Source: Octopus vulgaris | Taxonomy: Eukaryota | Direction: 5' to 3' | Assembly (NCBI GenBank): GCA_951406725.2 | Contig: OX597826.1 | Span: forward strand, 35,650,001-35,714,000 | Length of the DNA stretch: 64,000 bases | In this document: piece by piece, positions 2,705-54,584 of the stretch | Position numbering within the stretch: position 1 is the first letter of the stretch | Layout: each line of letters opens with the position of its first letter | Translations under genes and position numbers: made by a program | Notes under the pieces: model-generated | Database searches by the model: none | What the model saw: the letters and a program-made list of their open reading frames with translations, nothing else | What the model was told of the DNA's origin: nothing

Positions 2705-2980
2705 GGTGCAGTGTGGCTGTGTGGTGAGAAGAAGTTTTCGTTCAAGCTAAATGGTTCTAGGTTAAGTCCCTTGGCATGGCATCATGGACAAGTATCTTCT
2801 ACCGTAGCCCCAGGCACATTAAAGCCTTGAGATGGAAACTGAAAGAAGGCCATCACTTATATAATACCTAGCAGTTCAGCAAAAAGTGACTGATAGAATA
2901 ACTAACCATTCTTAAACCAAAAACAATAAAAGAACTGGGGTTGATTTGTTCAACTAAACCCTTCAAGGCAGTGCCCCAGG
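2705..2980 (+). mobile_element. Degenerate family A SINE
   Basis: Diverged head and partial tail matching 2208-2650. Confidence 0.65.
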
Positions 2981-3682
2981 GAGAGGGAGTTCTCCACTGG
3001 TTTTGATGGTTAGCATTCTGTTGATCAATCAACCGAATTATTTGCTCCTGGACTACGACACAAGTGTTTGAATATTCCACAGACACAGGTACCACTAAGA
3101 TAAGTCTCAAGTTGAATCAGCATGGTGCAGTATGTGATAATGCCAAAACATTTGAATTGCAGTTAGAATCCATCAAGTGGACTTTGGTACCAGTCCTGTA
3201 TGCCAAATTCTATTCACACAGTCTATGGGTTGACTTGGTGCTATAACAAATGGAATTTGCACAAGAAGTTATGCCATGCAATTGCACCCGAGTCCTCATA
3301 GTAGCAAAGCAAACTTATTAATGATTCACCTGCAGTAGGCCAGTAAGCCTATAAATATATGTATGCGTGTGTGTATGCATGTGTATGCATGCATGTACGT
3401 GTATGTGTGTGTATGTATGTATGTATGTATGTGTGTGTGTATGTATGTATGCATGTCATTATTCAGTTTTATCTCAAGATTTTTTGCCAATAAAGAGCCA
3501 TTTTGTAATCTATATCCAAGGTTCCTTCATTGGAATTTCAACAACATCAACAGGGTATTTTTATATGCATGTATGTATGTATGTATGTATGTATGTATGT
3601 ATGTATACATGTAGATCTATATGCTTTGTTTTATGTGTCTTCTCATATATATAGTTGCATATCTAGACATGCTGATATATAG

Positions 3683-3890
3683 TTAAATAATAAACTTCAG
3701 GAAAGTTTTACAAATTTTTACAGTTCCACTGATGGATTGGATCTGTAGTTTTCGAATCAGCTTTCTCCTTTCTGGTTTTGAGAAGCCTAATTTCTTAAGA
3801 TTGGTATTTAGGCAGTGTGTTACATATCCCAGTGCCCCAATAATTACAGGTATAGACCTGAACTTGTAATCTAGGTAGAGTAACAGCAAG
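3683..3890 (-). pseudogene. 3' fragment of an RLE-type (R4-like) non-LTR retrotransposon ORF
   Basis: YKFRSIPVIIGALGYV...LQIQSISGTVKICKTFL resembles the C-terminus after the restriction-like endonuclease (PVxIGALG motif). Confidence 0.65.
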
Positions 3891-4019
3891 TATATATGTA
3901 CATATACATGTATATATGTTCTGTTTCTCATTTTAACTCAAAGTAAACTTTTAACTGGCCACTGACTTGGTAGCCATGTTGTGAAGAAAGGTAGCTTGAT
4001 TTACCCGTCATCCCTTAAA

Positions 4020-4178
4020 TCTTAGATTTTTATAGTCCCAGATATTGTGTTCATTTATAACATATGGATTAAAGGATTTGCATTCCCTCCCCAAGATTCC
4101 AAGTGCAGCTATAACTTGCTCCAGACACATTGGTATATATCCTGTTGCTCCAATAATGTATTTAGTTTGTATCTGTAT
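4020..4178 (-). pseudogene. Second, diverged RLE-type LINE C-terminal fragment
   Basis: IIGATGYIPMCLEQ...(frameshift)...NTISGTIKI aligns by eye to the 3683-3890 peptide. Confidence 0.55.
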
Positions 4179-4210
4179 ATGATTGTACATATGTATGTAT
4201 ATATACGTGC

Positions 4211-5560: not shown

Positions 5561-7433
5561 GCACTGAATTTGTTAAAGCTTGCTTATATATTAATCCATA
5601 CTCCTTTAGAACTCTGATCCCTTAACTCCATAAATATTATTATGTAATAAATCTATTGTTGTTGTTATAGTTGTTTAGCCTTCAGGTCAGCTTTGATTGA
5701 TCAACAGTTAGAACAATGTTCTTCACATTAATTACTTAGCCAATGCATCAAGTGCAAGGATTTTGAATCTGAACTCTTCCTAGCTCACCGTTATATATCC
5801 AGATATTAAATGAAATCATTTACAAAGATATCATGTGGAGAAATTGTTCTTTAGAACTACAATACTCAATTAAATGAATATCCAAGTAACAGAAATATTA
5901 ATTACAGATATCCTCATTAAGAGAATTCACACCATGATAAAATCAGGATTTTCAAGGTTTAATTCCAATGTCCCGAGGAAGAGTATTTAGGGCTGTATTT
6001 AACAAGCCAGAGTTAAATAATTATAGCCATATGAAATGGTGAAAATTTAAGTCATCGCTTTCCTAAAATTCTTCAGATGAAAGTCTGAATTTTTATGTTT
6101 TTTTTTTAGGTTTTGTTTTATTATTTTCCCTATTCCATTACGAAATAGTGGGTCTTGAAATCTGCTCCCGCCTCAGTGGCATCACTAATGTTTGTTAATT
6201 TTCCTCCCGGTCACCATTTAAGCAACATCGTTTAATCACAGTTATACACTTCTGTTTGAAGGTAAAGGAGACGCTTCATCTGACAGGCAATAATCTCGTT
6301 AACCTATCAACTTTCCATTTCTGTTATGATTATCTAACTCTTGCTGAAATTCCTCTGGTTCATTAATTGTTTAATTTCGATATTATTTTTCTGTTAGTTT
6401 GGATATCATAATTGATTGCAAAAATTTTGGCTGGTTCCTTATAGAAGAATAATATAAGATCGTTTAACTACTTTAAATATAATATTGCTTCGTCAACACA
6501 ATAAAAGAATTATCTCCCTTTACCCTAATTATAGTGTCACATTCAATTTGATTAATAATTATACAAAAATAATGATGAAAATAAAACATGGAGGCCAAAA
6601 TGAGATTGAAGTGTAATTATTAATTTAGTGGTGAGTGAACTGAAAGAAATTAGAAGCACCTTAGATGCTGCAAGACATATCTCTTCTTTGGATGGATGGG
6701 AAAATGTTAAGAAAGAAATACAGGGATGACTGAAAAATGTATTTTAGCCTGTGTTAGGTTTTGTTGAAAAATGCTGAAGGTTGAATGACCGGTAGTGGAG
6801 GGGGAAGGATGATGTTTCATAAGTATTAAAGTAAAACTGGAAATATCTGTTTTTGCAGTGTGCATGATTTGTTTGTATCTGTGTGCATATGTATTTCTGT
6901 GTGCCATTAACAGTTATGTGTGTATAGTTAGTTCTCTCATTGTTATGTATGTATAGTGTGTATAGTGCTTACATTATGTGTGTATAGGGCATACATTATA
7001 GATCTAACGTGTATGAATTTATGTAGATAAATGTATTGTTCTGAAGTATTTAGATAACAGTGTTATAAAAGATGAGATGCTAGAGTTATGAGGAATCTGT
7101 GTATGAGTGTATATCATTGGTCTGTATGTGTGTGTGTATATCATTACTGTGTGTGTGTGTGTATCATTGCTGTGTGTGTGTGTGTAAGGCAGATTGAGAG
7201 AAACTCATTTGAAGTTGACTTTTGTTGTAGACATTATGATGGATGGCTTCATGACTTCAAAGACTTCGAAAATGAAAATAAAATCCCTTATTTGAAAAAA
7301 GGTAAAGTTTGGTGGCAGAAGGGCTTCCTGCTATAACATTCTACTTCAAAACTATCCTCCTCTCTAACCTATGCCAGCACTGAAAGTCAGGCCTTAAATG
7401 TATGAACAACCACACACATGCACATTATATATA

Positions 7434-7466
<33 letters not shown>

Positions 7467-7468
<2 letters not shown>

Positions 7469-8145
7469 CAATAATAATTCTCTAAACGAGATATAGACAG
7501 TAACTGCTCCATAACATAAGGGACGTTAGCCATCCGAATGTGGCTAGGGACAGGGCAGGGCGGTGGGGGTGTTACTGATGCATTTAGCCCCAGGCGATCA
7601 TCAACGTCACCAGGAGGGCTGACGCCATCACGGCGTCCTCTAGCCTGCAAAGGGAGATCATTCCTCGAAGAAGCGGATGCCACATACGGACCCAGGTTTC
7701 AAGGTGTTTGCTTATTATCAACGTATGGCAGGCACCGCCCCTCGACGAACGACTCTCTGTGCAGGCTATCTATATAAAGATTTTCACAGTAAATACATTT
7801 ACTGATGTAGAAAATCTGTTCGACAGCAATAATAATTCTCTAAACGAGATATAGACAGTAACTGCTCCATAACATAAGGGACGTTAGCCATCCGAATGTG
7901 GCTAGGGACAGGGCAGGGCGGTGGGGGTGTTACTGATGCATTTAGCCCCAGGCGATCATCAACGTCACCAGGAGGGTCCGTATGTGGCATCCGCTTCTTT
8001 GGGGAATGATCTCCCTTTGCAGGCTAGAGGACGCCGTGATGGCGTCAGCCCTCCTGGTGACGTTGATGATCGCCTGGGGCTAAATGCATCAGTAACACCC
8101 CCACTGCCCTGCCCTGTCCCTAGCCACATTCGGATGGCTAACGTC

Positions 8146-8151
<6 letters not shown>
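7467..8151 (-). mobile_element. Retrozyme-like element: 358-bp monomer + 152-bp partial tandem copy + 178-bp inverted copy, inserted in (TA)n
   Basis: 7825-7976 repeats 7467-7618; 7974-8151 is the reverse complement of 7516-7693 (3 mismatches); contains an HHR motif; GC-rich and CpG-retaining relative to the flanks. Confidence 0.75.
7678..7730 (-). ncRNA. Type I hammerhead ribozyme with U3-A8 core variant
   Basis: Minus strand: UGCCAUACG-UUGAUAA-U-AAG CAAACAC CUU-GAAAC CUGG GUC^CGUAUGUGGCA; perfect 6-bp proximal stem I; stem III self-complementary. Confidence 0.72.
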
Positions 8152-8195
<44 letters not shown>

Positions 8196-8208
8196 GTATA
8201 TGTATGTA

Positions 8209-8242
<34 letters not shown>

Positions 8243-8269
8243 TAGATAGATAGATAGATAGATAGACAG

Positions 8270-8562
8270 ATACAAAATTAAGAGGAATGACCACTAAAGT
8301 GGACACCTAACATGCTAAACATAGACATGAAATCTTGCAGATATCTGCATGCTTGCATACGCAGATATTAACAAGTGAAACCATTGGTACGTAGGTAATC
8401 GTTTTTTATTTCATATATTTTCATTTGTCTTGCTCATTTTTACATTTTGGCGTTTTGCTGAGATTTTTCTTGAGAACACACTCTTCATAGTAATGGTGAT
8501 TTGACGTCTATGTTTAGCATATTAGGTGTCCACTTTAGTGGTCATTCCTCTTAATTTTGTAT
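8270..8562. repeat. 57-bp inverted repeat pair enclosing ~180 bp
   Basis: 8270-8326 vs 8506-8562, one mismatch. Confidence 0.9.
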
Positions 8563-50387: not shown

Positions 50388-50498
50388 CTTATTATTTTTA
50401 TTCTTCCATACATAGCACGGCATACATTCATTCGCTGTTACAACATTTATTCATACGTTGCCTCTGTTAAATGTCTCAAGTTGAAATAACGATTTGTC

Positions 50499-50838
50499 TT
50501 TCCTATCTCTCTCACTACGAAATATAACCTTTTAGGCTACCTTTAAGTATTAACCCCGTCTTTCCGCCATAACTTGATTTTGGCTTTCCTATCTCTCTCT
50601 CTACGAAATATAACCTTTTAGGCTACCTTTAAGTATTAACCCCGTCTTTCCGCCATAACTTGATTTTGGCTTTCCTATCTCTCTCTCTACGAAATATAAC
50701 CTTTTAGACTACCTTTAAGTATTAACCCCATCTTTCCGCCATAACTTGATTTTGGCTTTCCTATCTCTCTCTACGAAATATACCCTTTTTTAGGCTACCT
50801 CCAAGCCTTAATCCCATCTTTCCCCATCTTTCCGCCAT
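50499..50838 (+). repeat. Four tandem 86-bp monomers upstream of the RTE ORF
   Basis: TTTCCTATCTCTCTC starts at 50499, 50585, 50671 and 50757; first three nearly identical, fourth diverged. Confidence 0.95.
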
Positions 50839-51310: not shown

Positions 51311-51508
51311 ATGTCCACTGCTAACACCAGCTCCTGTCCACGGCGTGGACAGGTCGGAAGACAGATCAAAAGAAAAATGCTACGAAAACTATCACCACCA
51401 CAACAACCCTCCTCTTCTCAGGCGCTGAATTCCCCCCTCCCCCCACATCTCCTTCCCAGTTTTCAGAGTTGGCACTATCAATGTTGGTACATTGACAGGC
51501 AAGTCTAG
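51311..51508 (+). CDS. Short basic upstream ORF overlapping the RTE main ORF
   Basis: ATG-initiated 65 aa (MSTANTSSCPRRGQVGRQIKRKMLRK...); the main ORF has no ATG before its APE motif I. Confidence 0.45.
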   Translation: MSTANTSSCPRRGQVGRQIKRKMLRKLSPPQQPSSSQALNSPLPPHLLPSFQSWHYQCWYIDRQV

Positions 51509-54500
51509 TGAGATTGTAGAGATGCTAGAGAGAAGACAGGTTGATGTATGCTGCATACAAGAGGTAAGATGGAGAGGTGCTTCGGCTAGGGTCCTCACGG
51601 GCAAGGCACTTAGGTACAAACTCTTCTGGCAAGGTAACGTGGAAGGTGTAGGGGGTGTAGGCATTCTCCTTGCGGAGAAATGGGTGGATGAGGTCATAGA
51701 GGTTGTCAGGGTTTGCGATAGAGTGCTTAAGCTCAGGTTGGTCCTACAGAGTGGCACAGCTATGATTATCTCCGCCTATGCCCCACAAGCGGGACTACCA
51801 AATGATCAGAAGGACAACTTTTATGATAGCCTTCTGCAGGCTACTTCAAAGACTAGTAGCAAGGACCTCATCTTTGTAGGTGGAGACTTTAATGGGCATG
51901 TTGGGCGGGAATCCGGTATCTTCACTGGGGTACATGGTGGCTATGGTATTGGCACCAGAAATGATGAGGGAACTAGACTGCTGGAATTCTGTGATGCATG
52001 TAACCTTTCAATCTGCAACACTAACTTCAAGAAGCCAGTCTGCCACCTCATAACTTATCAGTCAGGAGACTCCGCTAGCCAAATAGACTTCATCCTCACC
52101 AGAAAGCGGGATGCAGGGTTGCTCTTGAATACAAAGACCCTCCCGGGTGAAGAATGTATCCTTCAGCATAGACTAATCATCAGTGACTTTAAGCTTAAGG
52201 CCAGAAGGACTCCAAGAAACAAACCAATCCAGAAAAGAAGGATTTGGAGGCTAAAGAACCCTTCACATGGTCAGAAATTTAGGGACATACTCATCAAGAA
52301 ATTTGATGAGAGGGAGGAGGAGCTTCAGACGTCAGACATAGAAGGTAGCTGGGAATTCCTACGGGACAGCTTGCTGAGTGCCACAGACCGAGTCTGTGGA
52401 TGGTGCAAAGTCCCTTCCAGACCTAGAATTACGTGGTGGTGGAATAGTGCAGTAGATAAAGCCATCTGTAAAAAGAGACGGGCCTGGAAAGCCTGGAAGG
52501 ATGGGGGCAGCAGGGAACTGTACCAGATAGCCAAAAGGGAGGCTGGGCGGCAGGTATACATAGCCAAAGACGTAGCAGAAAAGAAGAAGCTTGCCAATGT
52601 CCAGCGACGCGAGGATCAAAGAGCTGAAGTATTTCGGATTGCCAGACAGTGTGTCAGAGAAAATAGTGATGTTATAGGAGAGAAATGTGTCCGCATGGAT
52701 GATGGGGCACTTGCTTTTACTGCTAGTGAAAAGAAAGAGGCTTGGAGAAGCCATTATGAAAGACTGCTGAATGAGGAGAATGAATGGGAGGAGGAGAGCC
52801 TGCAAAATGTCGACCCAGTAGAGGGACCAGCTACCCGAATAGACAGCTCCCTTGTAGATAAGGCAATTAAGGATATGAAACCAGGCAAAGCCCCTGGCCT
52901 ATCAGGAATCACTGCTGAGATGCTTAAAACAGCTGGCTATGTGGGCTATACCATAGTCACCCGCATTGTAAACCAGGTAGTTCACAATGGAGTCATACCC
53001 AATGACTGGTGCAGCAGCACCATAGTCAACTGCTACAAGGGTAAGGGTGATGCTCTAGATAGAAATAACTACAGAGGTATCAAACTGTTGGACCAGGTGA
53101 TGAAGGTCTCAGAGAAGGTCATAACCCATCTCATTAGGGAGAGAATTTGTTTAGATGAAATGCAGTTCGGTTTTGTACCAGGTAGAAGCACCACTGATGC
53201 TATATTCCTGGTCCGACAACTCCAGGAGAAGTACCTAGCTAAAGATAAACCCCTCTACATAGCTTTTGTAGACTTGGAGAAAGCCTTTGACAGGGTTCCC
53301 CGTTCCCTCATCTGGTGGTCGATGCGGAAACTGGAGATTGAAGAATGGCTAATAAGGGCTGTACAGGCTCTATACAGAGAGGCTGTCAGCAAGGTTAGGA
53401 TTGGCAACGAATATAGTGAAGAATTCCGGGTAGAAGTAGGTGTGCACCAGGGCTCAGCCCTCAGTCCCCTTTTATTCATCATAGTCCTTCAGGCAATAAC
53501 AGAGGAATTCAAAATGGGATGCCCCTGGGAGCTCCTCTATGCCGATGACCTAGCTCTCATAGCAGAATCACTACCGGAACTAGAAGAGAAATTTCGGGTG
53601 TGGAAGCAAGGGCTGGAATCAAAGGGCCTTAGAATAAATGTAGCAAAGACCAAAGTATTAGTAAGCAGCAAGAGGTACTCAGCACACCCCCCCTCGGGTA
53701 GGTGGCCCTGCTCAATCTATAGGAAAGGTACAGGTAGAAACTCCATAAGATGCACCCAATGTAAGTTATGGACACATAAGAGGTGCAGCAACATTAAAGG
53801 GAAATTAACAGATAAGATAGCTTTCATGTGCGGCAGATGCACAGGGACAATAGACACAACAGACACTCAGAAAACAGATTCCATCACACTCCAGGGAGAG
53901 AAACTAGAAGTAGTTGATAGTTTCCGCTACCTGGGTGACCATGTTAGTAGCGGAGGTGGATGCACAGAGAGTATCACCACTAGAATACGAATAGCCTGGG
54001 CAAAGTTCAGAAAGCTCCTACCCCTACTGGCAACAAAAGGTCTCTCCCTCAGAGCGAAAGGTAGATTGTATGATGCATGTGTGCGAACTGCCATGCTTCA
54101 CGGTAATGAAACATGGGCAGTGACTGCAGAGGACATGCGTAGACTTGAAAGAAATGAAGCTAGCATGATCCGCTGGATGTGTAGTGTCAGTGTGCACGCA
54201 CGACAGAGTGTAAGCATCCTAAGAGAAATGCTGGATATAAGAAGCATCAGATGTGGTGTGCAAGAGCGACGCTTGCGATGGTATGGTCATGTGCTGCGGA
54301 TGGATGAAGAGAGATGTGTGAAGAAGTGCCACTCCCAAACAGTTGAAGGTATCAGGGGGAGAGGTAGACCCAGGAAGACATGGGATGAGGTAGTCAAGCA
54401 TGACCTCAGAGCATTGGGCCTCACTGAGGCAATGGCGAAAGACCGAGATCTCTGGAGATATGCTGTGACTGCAAAGACCCGGGCTGCTTTCTGCAGCAAT

Positions 54501-54584
54501 TCCACATACCCCCTACCCATTCAAAGTACCCCGGATCCCCAAAGTACCCCGGACCCAGTTGCCCCCGTGCCGCTGGCACGTTAA
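51492..54584 (+). CDS. RTE LINE polyprotein: APE endonuclease, reverse transcriptase, PHD-like zinc finger (frame open from 51429)
   Basis: APE motifs GTINVG, CIQE, SAYAP, GDFNG, IDFIL; RT motifs NYRGIKLL, QFGF, FVDLEKAFD, GVHQGSALSPLLF, YADD (53538-53549), FRYLG; RTE C-terminal LRWYGHV and RGRPRKTW. Confidence 0.97.
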   Translation: MTGKSSEIVEMLERRQVDVCCIQEVRWRGASARVLTGKALRYKLFWQGNVEGVGGVGILLAEKWVDEVIEVVRVCDRVLKLRLVLQSGTAMIISAYAPQAGLPNDQKDNFYDSLLQATSKTSSKDLIFVGGDFNGHVGRESGIFTGVHGGYGIGTRNDEGTRLLEFCDACNLSICNTNFKKPVCHLITYQSGDSASQIDFILTRKRDAGLLLNTKTLPGEECILQHRLIISDFKLKARRTPRNKPIQKRRIWRLKNPSHGQKFRDILIKKFDEREEELQTSDIEGSWEFLRDSLLSATDRVCGWCKVPSRPRITWWWNSAVDKAICKKRRAWKAWKDGGSRELYQIAKREAGRQVYIAKDVAEKKKLANVQRREDQRAEVFRIARQCVRENSDVIGEKCVRMDDGALAFTASEKKEAWRSHYERLLNEENEWEEESLQNVDPVEGPATRIDSSLVDKAIKDMKPGKAPGLSGITAEMLKTAGYVGYTIVTRIVNQVVHNGVIPNDWCSSTIVNCYKGKGDALDRNNYRGIKLLDQVMKVSEKVITHLIRERICLDEMQFGFVPGRSTTDAIFLVRQLQEKYLAKDKPLYIAFVDLEKAFDRVPRSLIWWSMRKLEIEEWLIRAVQALYREAVSKVRIGNEYSEEFRVEVGVHQGSALSPLLFIIVLQAITEEFKMGCPWELLYADDLALIAESLPELEEKFRVWKQGLESKGLRINVAKTKVLVSSKRYSAHPPSGRWPCSIYRKGTGRNSIRCTQCKLWTHKRCSNIKGKLTDKIAFMCGRCTGTIDTTDTQKTDSITLQGEKLEVVDSFRYLGDHVSSGGGCTESITTRIRIAWAKFRKLLPLLATKGLSLRAKGRLYDACVRTAMLHGNETWAVTAEDMRRLERNEASMIRWMCSVSVHARQSVSILREMLDIRSIRCGVQERRLRWYGHVLRMDEERCVKKCHSQTVEGIRGRGRPRKTWDEVVKHDLRALGLTEAMAKDRDLWRYAVTAKTRAAFCSNSTYPLPIQSTPDPQSTPDPVAPVPLAR

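Follow-up and report, generated by a model that had tools for sequence, protein, structure and literature searches.

A young copy of a dispersed, hammerhead-bearing, non-coding family in Octopus vulgaris, probably pasted by a Penelope-type enzyme from one RNA

The element at positions 7467–8151 of the window (by which we mean the whole 64-kb stretch of Octopus vulgaris DNA that was analysed, 64,000 nucleotides) is, judged from its sequence and that of its relatives, probably a young copy of a dispersed non-coding hammerhead family, pasted by a Penelope-type enzyme from a single RNA that was probably a circle. Its family shows the sequence-level features of a metazoan non-LTR retrozyme, being non-coding, within about 150–450 bp, tandem at many loci and furnished with a type I hammerhead, and we are highly confident that the element is of retrozyme type. 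The single copy at 7467–8151 is an ordinary daughter insertion. It comprises a unit, a partial repeat and an inverted arm, with (TA)n on both sides, and its features are as follows.

7426–7466, no strand: left part of the (TA)n target tract
7467–7976, RNA sense minus: long arm, 510 nt or 1.42 units, outer end at S1 (unit base 1)
7467–7824, minus: one full 358-nt unit, as cut at S1
7467–7510, minus: 44-nt 'tail' between S1 (unit base 1) and S45 (unit base 45), from the fixed outer ends of copies and by analogy with PMC11167929
7678–7730, minus: type I hammerhead motif, predicted cut 7689/7688, from a descriptor, an alignment and pair counts
7712, minus: rare stem II variant of this copy, weakening or shifting stem II
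7778–7817, minus: hairpin that a computed fold places directly 3' of S1 in the RNA
7825–7976, minus: second, partial unit (bases 1–152), identical to the first at 152/152 positions
7974–7976: GGG overlap, 3 nt, joining the two arms
7974–8151, RNA sense plus: short inverted arm, unit bases 227 to 50, an inverted copy of 7516–7693
8152–8189, no strand: right part of the (TA)n target tract

A sequence-only reading of this DNA had described a 358-bp unit, a near-exact 152-bp repeat and a 178-bp inverted copy; all three are present, the repeat being exact. Its (TA)n setting was also found, with TA tracts at 7426–7467 and from 8149, the right flank (8149–8264) carrying TA first and then other short repeats. 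The inverted arm is identical to 7516–7693 at 175 of 178 positions; CpG transitions account for two of the three mismatches and hint that the copy has decayed since it was inserted. The outer end of this arm lies at base 50, 5 nt short of S45; its inner end starts 2–5 nt upstream of the cut site, so that the 3' strand of the hammerhead is present and the core absent. The description 'GC-rich' holds relative to the window (48.6% vs 35.7%) and not in absolute terms, and the CpG observed/expected ratio is 0.85 in the element vs 0.34 in the window (686 seen, 2034 expected). It had seen no recognisable protein, and indeed stop-to-stop frames over the element reach at most 111 aa and tblastn of four resident Penelope proteins against the 64-kb window gave no match. 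No further copy of the unit was found elsewhere in the window.

Relatives are abundant in the genome. A 24-nt motif from the middle of the unit has 1011 exact matches (reversed control, 0), a count that takes in subfamilies down to about 80% identity; the tail motif has 316 and the hammerhead motif of this subfamily 115, while the TA-to-S1 junction has 1025 across related subfamilies, the sister subfamily included. A DNA search in which 40 of 1334 candidates were scored returned 128 matches on many contigs, and relatives range from 99% identity to the unit down to about 80%. The earlier claim that a tandem retroelement, dispersed, non-coding and equipped with a hammerhead, inserted here recently is supported. 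Of the outcomes named beforehand as adverse, a single-copy sequence is excluded by the 1011 motif matches, and an ORF of which the unit would be the terminal repeat was attached to it in none of 87 loci. Tandem length does not exceed 3.5 units among copies at least 90% alike and reaches 5.6 and 15 units in more distant subfamilies. The hammerhead region also occurs in contigs from four sequencing runs whose labels name four organisms. Contigs of four runs presumed to be RNA contain pieces of the family but reveal neither strand, ends nor circles, and so weigh neither way on expression; among the runs listed, none is on record as RNA. In one run, a 390-nt contig has unit bases 1–154 and 325–358 in common with the unit and a different middle of 172 nt, which makes the region around the two start sites the conserved part.

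Several related sequences were noted in passing. A more distant 354-bp non-coding sister family (L062 1460–1873, L063, L086–L088) shares the tail, has a canonical C3-G8 core and a different palindromic loop III, and is two-armed too; at L066 1500–2400, a fragment of about 95 bp from the start of this sister, together with a TA tract, has been amplified as a local minisatellite. A very young sister subfamily of 359–360 nt (L190, L192, L204, L221 and others) carries a C at position 4 of the core, and its arms can reach 15 units. At L145 and L146 (G000:C1 near 67.41 and 67.47 Mb), two one-armed copies that are identical, flanks included, lie in opposite orientation 61 kb apart and probably represent an inverted segmental duplication. 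In the RNA sense, A>G is the commonest change (74, vs 40 T>C); RNA editing as its source was dropped, no unit having more than three.

On the minus strand the hammerhead motif begins with stem I, in which 7730–7722 pair with 7688–7678 (9 bp with a 2-nt bulge). The core, UUGAUAA at 7721–7715 (U3 = 7721, A8 = 7716, A9 = 7715), carries U3 and A8 instead of the canonical C3 and G8, and is followed 3' by a short stem II, GAAAC, a 2-bp stem III with a 4-nt loop, and the GUC that ends at 7689. The predicted cut agrees with the start of the 3' product at 7688 in the sequence-only reading, whose single hammerhead per unit on the minus strand stands as to motif and strand; the locus as a whole, however, holds only one complete hammerhead, the 152-bp repeat ending before the motif. 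A descriptor found one site in the window, on one strand only, against 0.03 per shuffled window (30 shuffles) and 0/3000 shuffled units, figures that are flattering because the descriptor was written after the motif had been seen. Rfam gave no hammerhead in this stretch, its matches being chance microRNA and snoRNA hits, mostly on TA tracts. Four control loci, relatives with a canonical core among them, were equally negative; Rfam is blind to these motifs.

All of 100 listed motif matches have U at position 3, whereas at position 8 a hand count gives 58 with A and 42 with G; the U3-G8 wobble in these 42 shows that the core pair is not strictly kept. The variant at 7712 occurs in 2 of the 100 and is absent from the contigs of four other runs. 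Base pairing is nevertheless kept in 94.7% of cells across 19 haplotypes, related to one another and hand-picked, with two-sided changes at four pairs and slid controls at 25–55%; from these alignments, we conclude that subfamilies have preserved the predicted hammerhead fold. In 70 of 116 motif matches loop III forms a perfect palindrome, in differing versions, which fits expectation for dimeric hammerheads. The fold lies above the minimum energy, forcing it costing about 13 kcal/mol in the circular monomer. U3-A8 covariation is natural and active in vitro (PMC3088659, section 8), and U3-A8 cores are known from hammerheads of Schistosoma Penelope-like elements (PLEs; Cercyon min-HHR, pLTR; PMC4209133). 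Like these, the present motif shows covariation of the 3–8 pair and a tolerated U-U at the base of stem II; unlike them, as they are described in those two papers, C-G, U-G and U-A versions co-exist here in related, recently spread subfamilies. A literature search found no activity data for U3-G8 cores; the non-standard cores (U3-G8, and C4 in the sister subfamily) may cut slowly. A clean compensatory path from C-G to U-A was rejected, as a tree of 28 copies, which omits loci without a long enough segment, needs three changes and leaves the C-G, U-G and U-A versions unordered.

The inverted arm turned out to be the usual condition and no oddity. Behind the first 100 listed matches to the mid-unit motif lie 49 loci on contig 1, all of which were analysed: 32 are two-armed, with arms back to back and RNA 3' ends outward, 16 are one-armed (two of them duplicates of each other) and one is complex. 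In 30 of the 32 two-armed loci, one arm ends at S1 (base 1–6) and the other at a second start; the remaining two have damaged ends. The second start lies at bases 43–50 in 24 of the 30, while in six the BLAST alignment stops at base 62, these six belonging to a diverged subfamily in which the flank shows the arm continuing. Were two equal starts chosen freely, about half of the pairs would match, but the same start was used twice in 0/32. The same pairing was seen in 19 of the 28 two-armed loci among 38 further loci, selected with bias, the other nine having a damaged second end; in 40 loci picked by TA+S1, the inverted arm ended at S45 in 26 and at S1 in none. The one exception (L031 3040–4084) has both outer ends at S45, and its flanking DNA (2900–4190) is mirrored too, which suggests a later fold-back duplication or an assembly effect. 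The window copy follows the rule, with a long arm from base 1 and a short arm from base 50. We conclude that copies have their outer ends at two constant sites, separated by ∼44 nt, and that the inverted arm is the family's normal form. A genome search had been expected to reveal many tandem copies, often in TA repeats and with permuted ends; the copies are as foreseen, and their ends are not permuted.

TA flanks the element on at least one side at 39 of the 49 contig-1 loci. Target duplications of 10–15 bp are present at about eight non-TA sites among 87 loci and are not resolvable in the TA tract of the window, and overlaps at the junction of the two arms across the family are mostly −6 to +6 nt. 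Two side cases were set aside: retrotransposon insertion at the unit start site was rejected for two loci cut at base 212, which adjoin common short repeats and no coding element, and the 2.6-kb gap between two insertions at L031 is ordinary genomic sequence.

This architecture matches that of PLEs. Their insertions are marked by partial tandems, an adjacent inverted truncated copy, a tail of 30–40 bp at one end and a bias towards (TA)n (PMC8557442), where the origin of tails and inverted arms is called undefined. A purified PLE protein, PAc, predicted to be a dimer, cuts and extends both strands, and its two internal starts bound the tail (PMC11167929). The same features appear here: a partial tandem with an inverted 5'-truncated copy, a tail at one end (44 nt) and a TA or microsatellite target. 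By analogy, the family's insertion footprint matches the Penelope pattern of a 'tail' and two starts, and the 44-nt tail would be the interval between two reverse-transcription start sites. As PAc requires RNA 3' of its start sites (PMC11167929), the modelled hairpin at 7778–7817 is a conceivable candidate for an enzyme-binding site. Mobilisation of the 358-nt family by a Penelope-type enzyme, a route that the sequence-only reading had noted for metazoan retrozymes, is supported by the two-arm, two-start footprint and the TA targets, and we regard it as very likely.

A potential source of such an enzyme resides in the same genome. A family encoding a 781-aa protein with reverse transcriptase and GIY-YIG domains (L096–L112, e.g. 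G000:C17:42763841–42766183) has many intact copies of 95–99% identity, which end in TA tracts and have two 3' ends ∼38 nt apart; one copy, L101, is two-armed with the tail on one arm only. Near its 3' end it carries a minimal U3-A8 hammerhead whose core, UUGAUAA, is that of the retrozyme. A CxxxxCxxC motif precedes the endonuclease, which points to the Neptune clade, and we presume the family to be of Neptune type from this motif. A protein search for an autonomous partner returned the 781-aa family alone. Alignment of the retrozyme tail with the Neptune-type end was not significant (35/300 shuffles as good), and no shared tail DNA was found in 30 GIY-YIG loci, the top scorers only of 6136 candidates, and Penelope elements from 20 longer loci gave none either. 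The search for an autonomous partner through tail-motif loci (14 of 30 read) and the 40 TA+S1 loci gave only sister subfamilies, and a further lead ended at the 354-bp sister family and at no ORF.

What kind of RNA was copied can be approached from the arms themselves. In copies at least 95% like the unit, opposite arms of a locus differ by 1.6%, vs 3.3% between loci, the within-locus value being lower in 25 of 26 loci, and markers agree between opposite arms in 320 of 331 cases, vs 72% between loci. By these markers, both arms of a locus are from a single haplotype or from two that are very close. Where a sister subfamily with 84% identity to the unit was examined, units differ by 0.27 bases within loci, a figure dominated by one long locus, vs 7.6 between loci; the same subfamily has 14 near-identical full units in one arm, and at L204 a single haplotype on both arms. 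Alleles private to a locus are mostly unshared within it (shared in 36/174 same-arm and 30/198 opposite-arm comparisons), as expected from later mutation, although this gives no proof of one molecule. A comparison with the nearest other locus ran against the one-template reading and is biased by its taking of the minimum.

Of 88 arms, only 2 stop at the cut site, vs 2.4 expected, so that the template was read through there, and a mechanistic stop of the inverted arm at the ribozyme cut site is rejected; an unfiltered count on contig 1 gives 6 of 80 arms, the ends of diverged copies being imprecise. Arms longer than one unit number 46 of 88, of which 59, outside contig 1, had been selected for length; the proportion on contig 1 alone is 9 of 29. 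Since there is no stalling at the cut site and arms exceed one unit, a cut linear monomer is not the usual template. The greater-than-unit-length copy had been ascribed to circular or multimeric RNA, and it fits both, but template jumping fits too. A circle explains the arms most simply, and on the sequence comparisons we lean towards it as template.

The same element and enzyme might instead have used an uncut linear multimer, or repeated jumps between monomers, with no circle as intermediate, and this we consider unlikely. Read-through at the cut site fits such a template equally well, as PAc, the one PLE studied in vitro, inserts unprocessed RNA there, uncut RNA being its main substrate and hammerhead cutting dispensable (PMC11167929), and U3-G8 cores (42 of the 100 listed) and C4 cores may be slow to cut. 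However, arms of 5 to at least 14 near-identical units would need equally long, homogeneous and uncut parents, and two same-strand hammerheads are found in only 11 of the 49 contig-1 loci. Retrozymes of mussel, coral and axolotl accumulate as circles (PMC7229834), and the conservation of the hammerhead fold across subfamilies also speaks against a template that is never cut.

If the unit were instead the pseudo-LTR (pLTR) of a coding PLE, the loci would be its 5'-truncated remains. The insertion architecture is identical to that of PLEs (PMC8557442), U3-A8 cores are known from PLE pLTRs (PMC4209133), and retrozymes and pLTRs are related in Xenopus (bioRxiv 10.64898/2026.07.22.740005). Nevertheless, what follows base 358 is base 1 of the next unit, and such head-to-tail repetition goes on up to 15 times. 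Matches to Penelope proteins next to the element are absent from all 87 loci, two of which have fragments more than 600 bp away, and from 40 further loci read up to 5.9 kb inward, two of which have separate fragments, and an ORF for reverse transcriptase and GIY-YIG between pLTRs, as in an autonomous EN+ PLE, was found neither in these 87 + 40 loci nor in the window. We therefore consider this explanation improbable.

The term 'viroid-like', as used at first, finds no support: it implies RNA-to-RNA replication. Replicons of that kind often have ribozymes on both polarities, and the hammerhead here is on one strand only. An endogenised replicon multiplying from RNA to RNA, with occasional reverse transcription, would accord with the viroid-like size, with the strong folding of the unit RNA (z = −4.4, 0/100 shuffles as good) and with the heterogeneous circles of mussel, for which RNA–RNA replication is named as one option (PMC7229834); with hundreds of genomic copies whose retrotransposon footprint accounts for their spread, it is very improbable. 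A satellite, minisatellite or assembly fold-back artefact with a chance hammerhead-like motif, for which the lack of an Rfam hammerhead, the poor assembly of TA tracts and the one locus with mirrored flanks might be cited, is equally hard to credit. The copies are short and scattered, each in its own unique flanks; their ends are fixed and unequal, target sites are duplicated and the arms differ from each other. The motif was found in 0/3000 shuffles, and the hammerhead region recurs in the contigs of the four runs with four organism labels.

For the favoured reading, copying of one probably circular RNA by a Penelope-type enzyme, the following sequence of events is proposed. A source locus with several units would be transcribed, and its hammerheads would excise monomers, which ligation would close into circles; cleavage would probably proceed as dimers, because stem III has only 2 bp and its loop is palindromic or nearly so. 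Both strands of a TA tract would be nicked, with a stagger of 10–15 nt, by a Neptune-like protein that plausibly acts as a dimer. Each DNA 3' end would then prime a cDNA, the first beginning at S1 and the second at S45, and synthesis would run round the template until it stopped, the two cDNAs being joined at a few bases of microhomology. The locus at 7467–8151 is probably a dead-end daughter, because it has a single hammerhead, so that it could not release a monomer by double cleavage, and because RNA through it would fold as a long hairpin. Li, Clavereau and Pollet (2026, bioRxiv 10.64898/2026.07.22.740005) give at least two consecutive hammerhead units as the rule for an active copy; the locus has fewer, which bears on its activity as a source and not on family membership.

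A more far-reaching version, which we offer tentatively, is that one Penelope dimer writes each insertion on a single hammerhead-made circle, its subunits locked to starts 44 nt apart and working on opposite strands. In every Penelope insertion, tail and inverted arm would then be two faces of one reaction, and the C-G, U-G and U-A cores would tune cutting and keep circles intact. If this were true, a 358-nt RNA without a sequence-matched master element would be a minimal defined substrate with which to rebuild the reaction.

The retrozyme class, the U3-A8 core and the link to PLEs have all been published before. Metazoan non-LTR retrozymes include those of mussel (350–390 bp) and axolotl (330/350 bp) (Cervera and de la Peña, 2020, PMC7229834). 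As in the retrozymes described there, the family has a non-coding unit, here of 358 nt, with GC below 50%, head-to-tail repetition, one type I hammerhead per unit, target duplications of more than 4 bp and co-existing autonomous PLEs, and a U-U at the base of stem II recalls axolotl HHR_Amex2. The U3-A8 and U3-G8 cores, back-to-back arms, two fixed starts and TA targeting set it apart from the retrozymes of that description; the words 'inverted' and 'microsatellite' are absent from the main text of the paper. Circles and cleavage were demonstrated for those retrozymes; in the present family cleavage is predicted and circles are proposed.

Retrozymes have been proposed to be non-autonomous PLE derivatives on the basis of co-occurrence and of pLTR homology in vertebrates (Li, Clavereau and Pollet, 2026). 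The family resembles the retrozymes of that account in size range and in dispersed copies from monomer to multimer, but here the evidence is the insertion footprint, and a homologous pLTR was not found. With EN+ PLEs, as described in PMC8557442 and PMC11167929 (Neptune, Naiad, Poseidon PAc and non-autonomous Chlamys such as MRC1), it shares partial tandems, the inverted truncated copy, the one-end tail, microsatellite or AT-rich targets, two internal starts and extension of both strands. It differs from them in having no ORF and a unit that repeats itself and flanks no gene; its hammerhead is of extended type with a long stem I, unlike the minimal hammerhead of PLE pLTRs, and its 44-nt tail is not detectably homologous to that of the resident Neptune. 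A two-arm, two-start footprint for retrozymes was not reported in the main texts of the literature found, and no paper on cephalopod retrozymes was found by title or start of abstract, although supplements may hold examples.

The return of retrozymes to DNA has so far been inferred mostly from co-occurrence with PLEs. In the present family the footprint is seen on a short RNA that encodes no protein, and each start serves one arm almost without exception; a young intact Neptune-type ORF in the same genome offers a directly testable enzyme–substrate pair.

Two other features of the window were noted. A MITE-like element of 293 bp lies at 8270–8562, 120 bp from the insertion; it has terminal inverted repeats of 65 nt (95%) and one related copy (L095) among 225 loci. 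At 51429–54581 (+), an uninterrupted frame of 1051 aa has a start that, as we take it, resembles the endonuclease of an RTE-type LINE, and it is presumably a young LINE; an 86-bp tandem array lies at 50493–50827.
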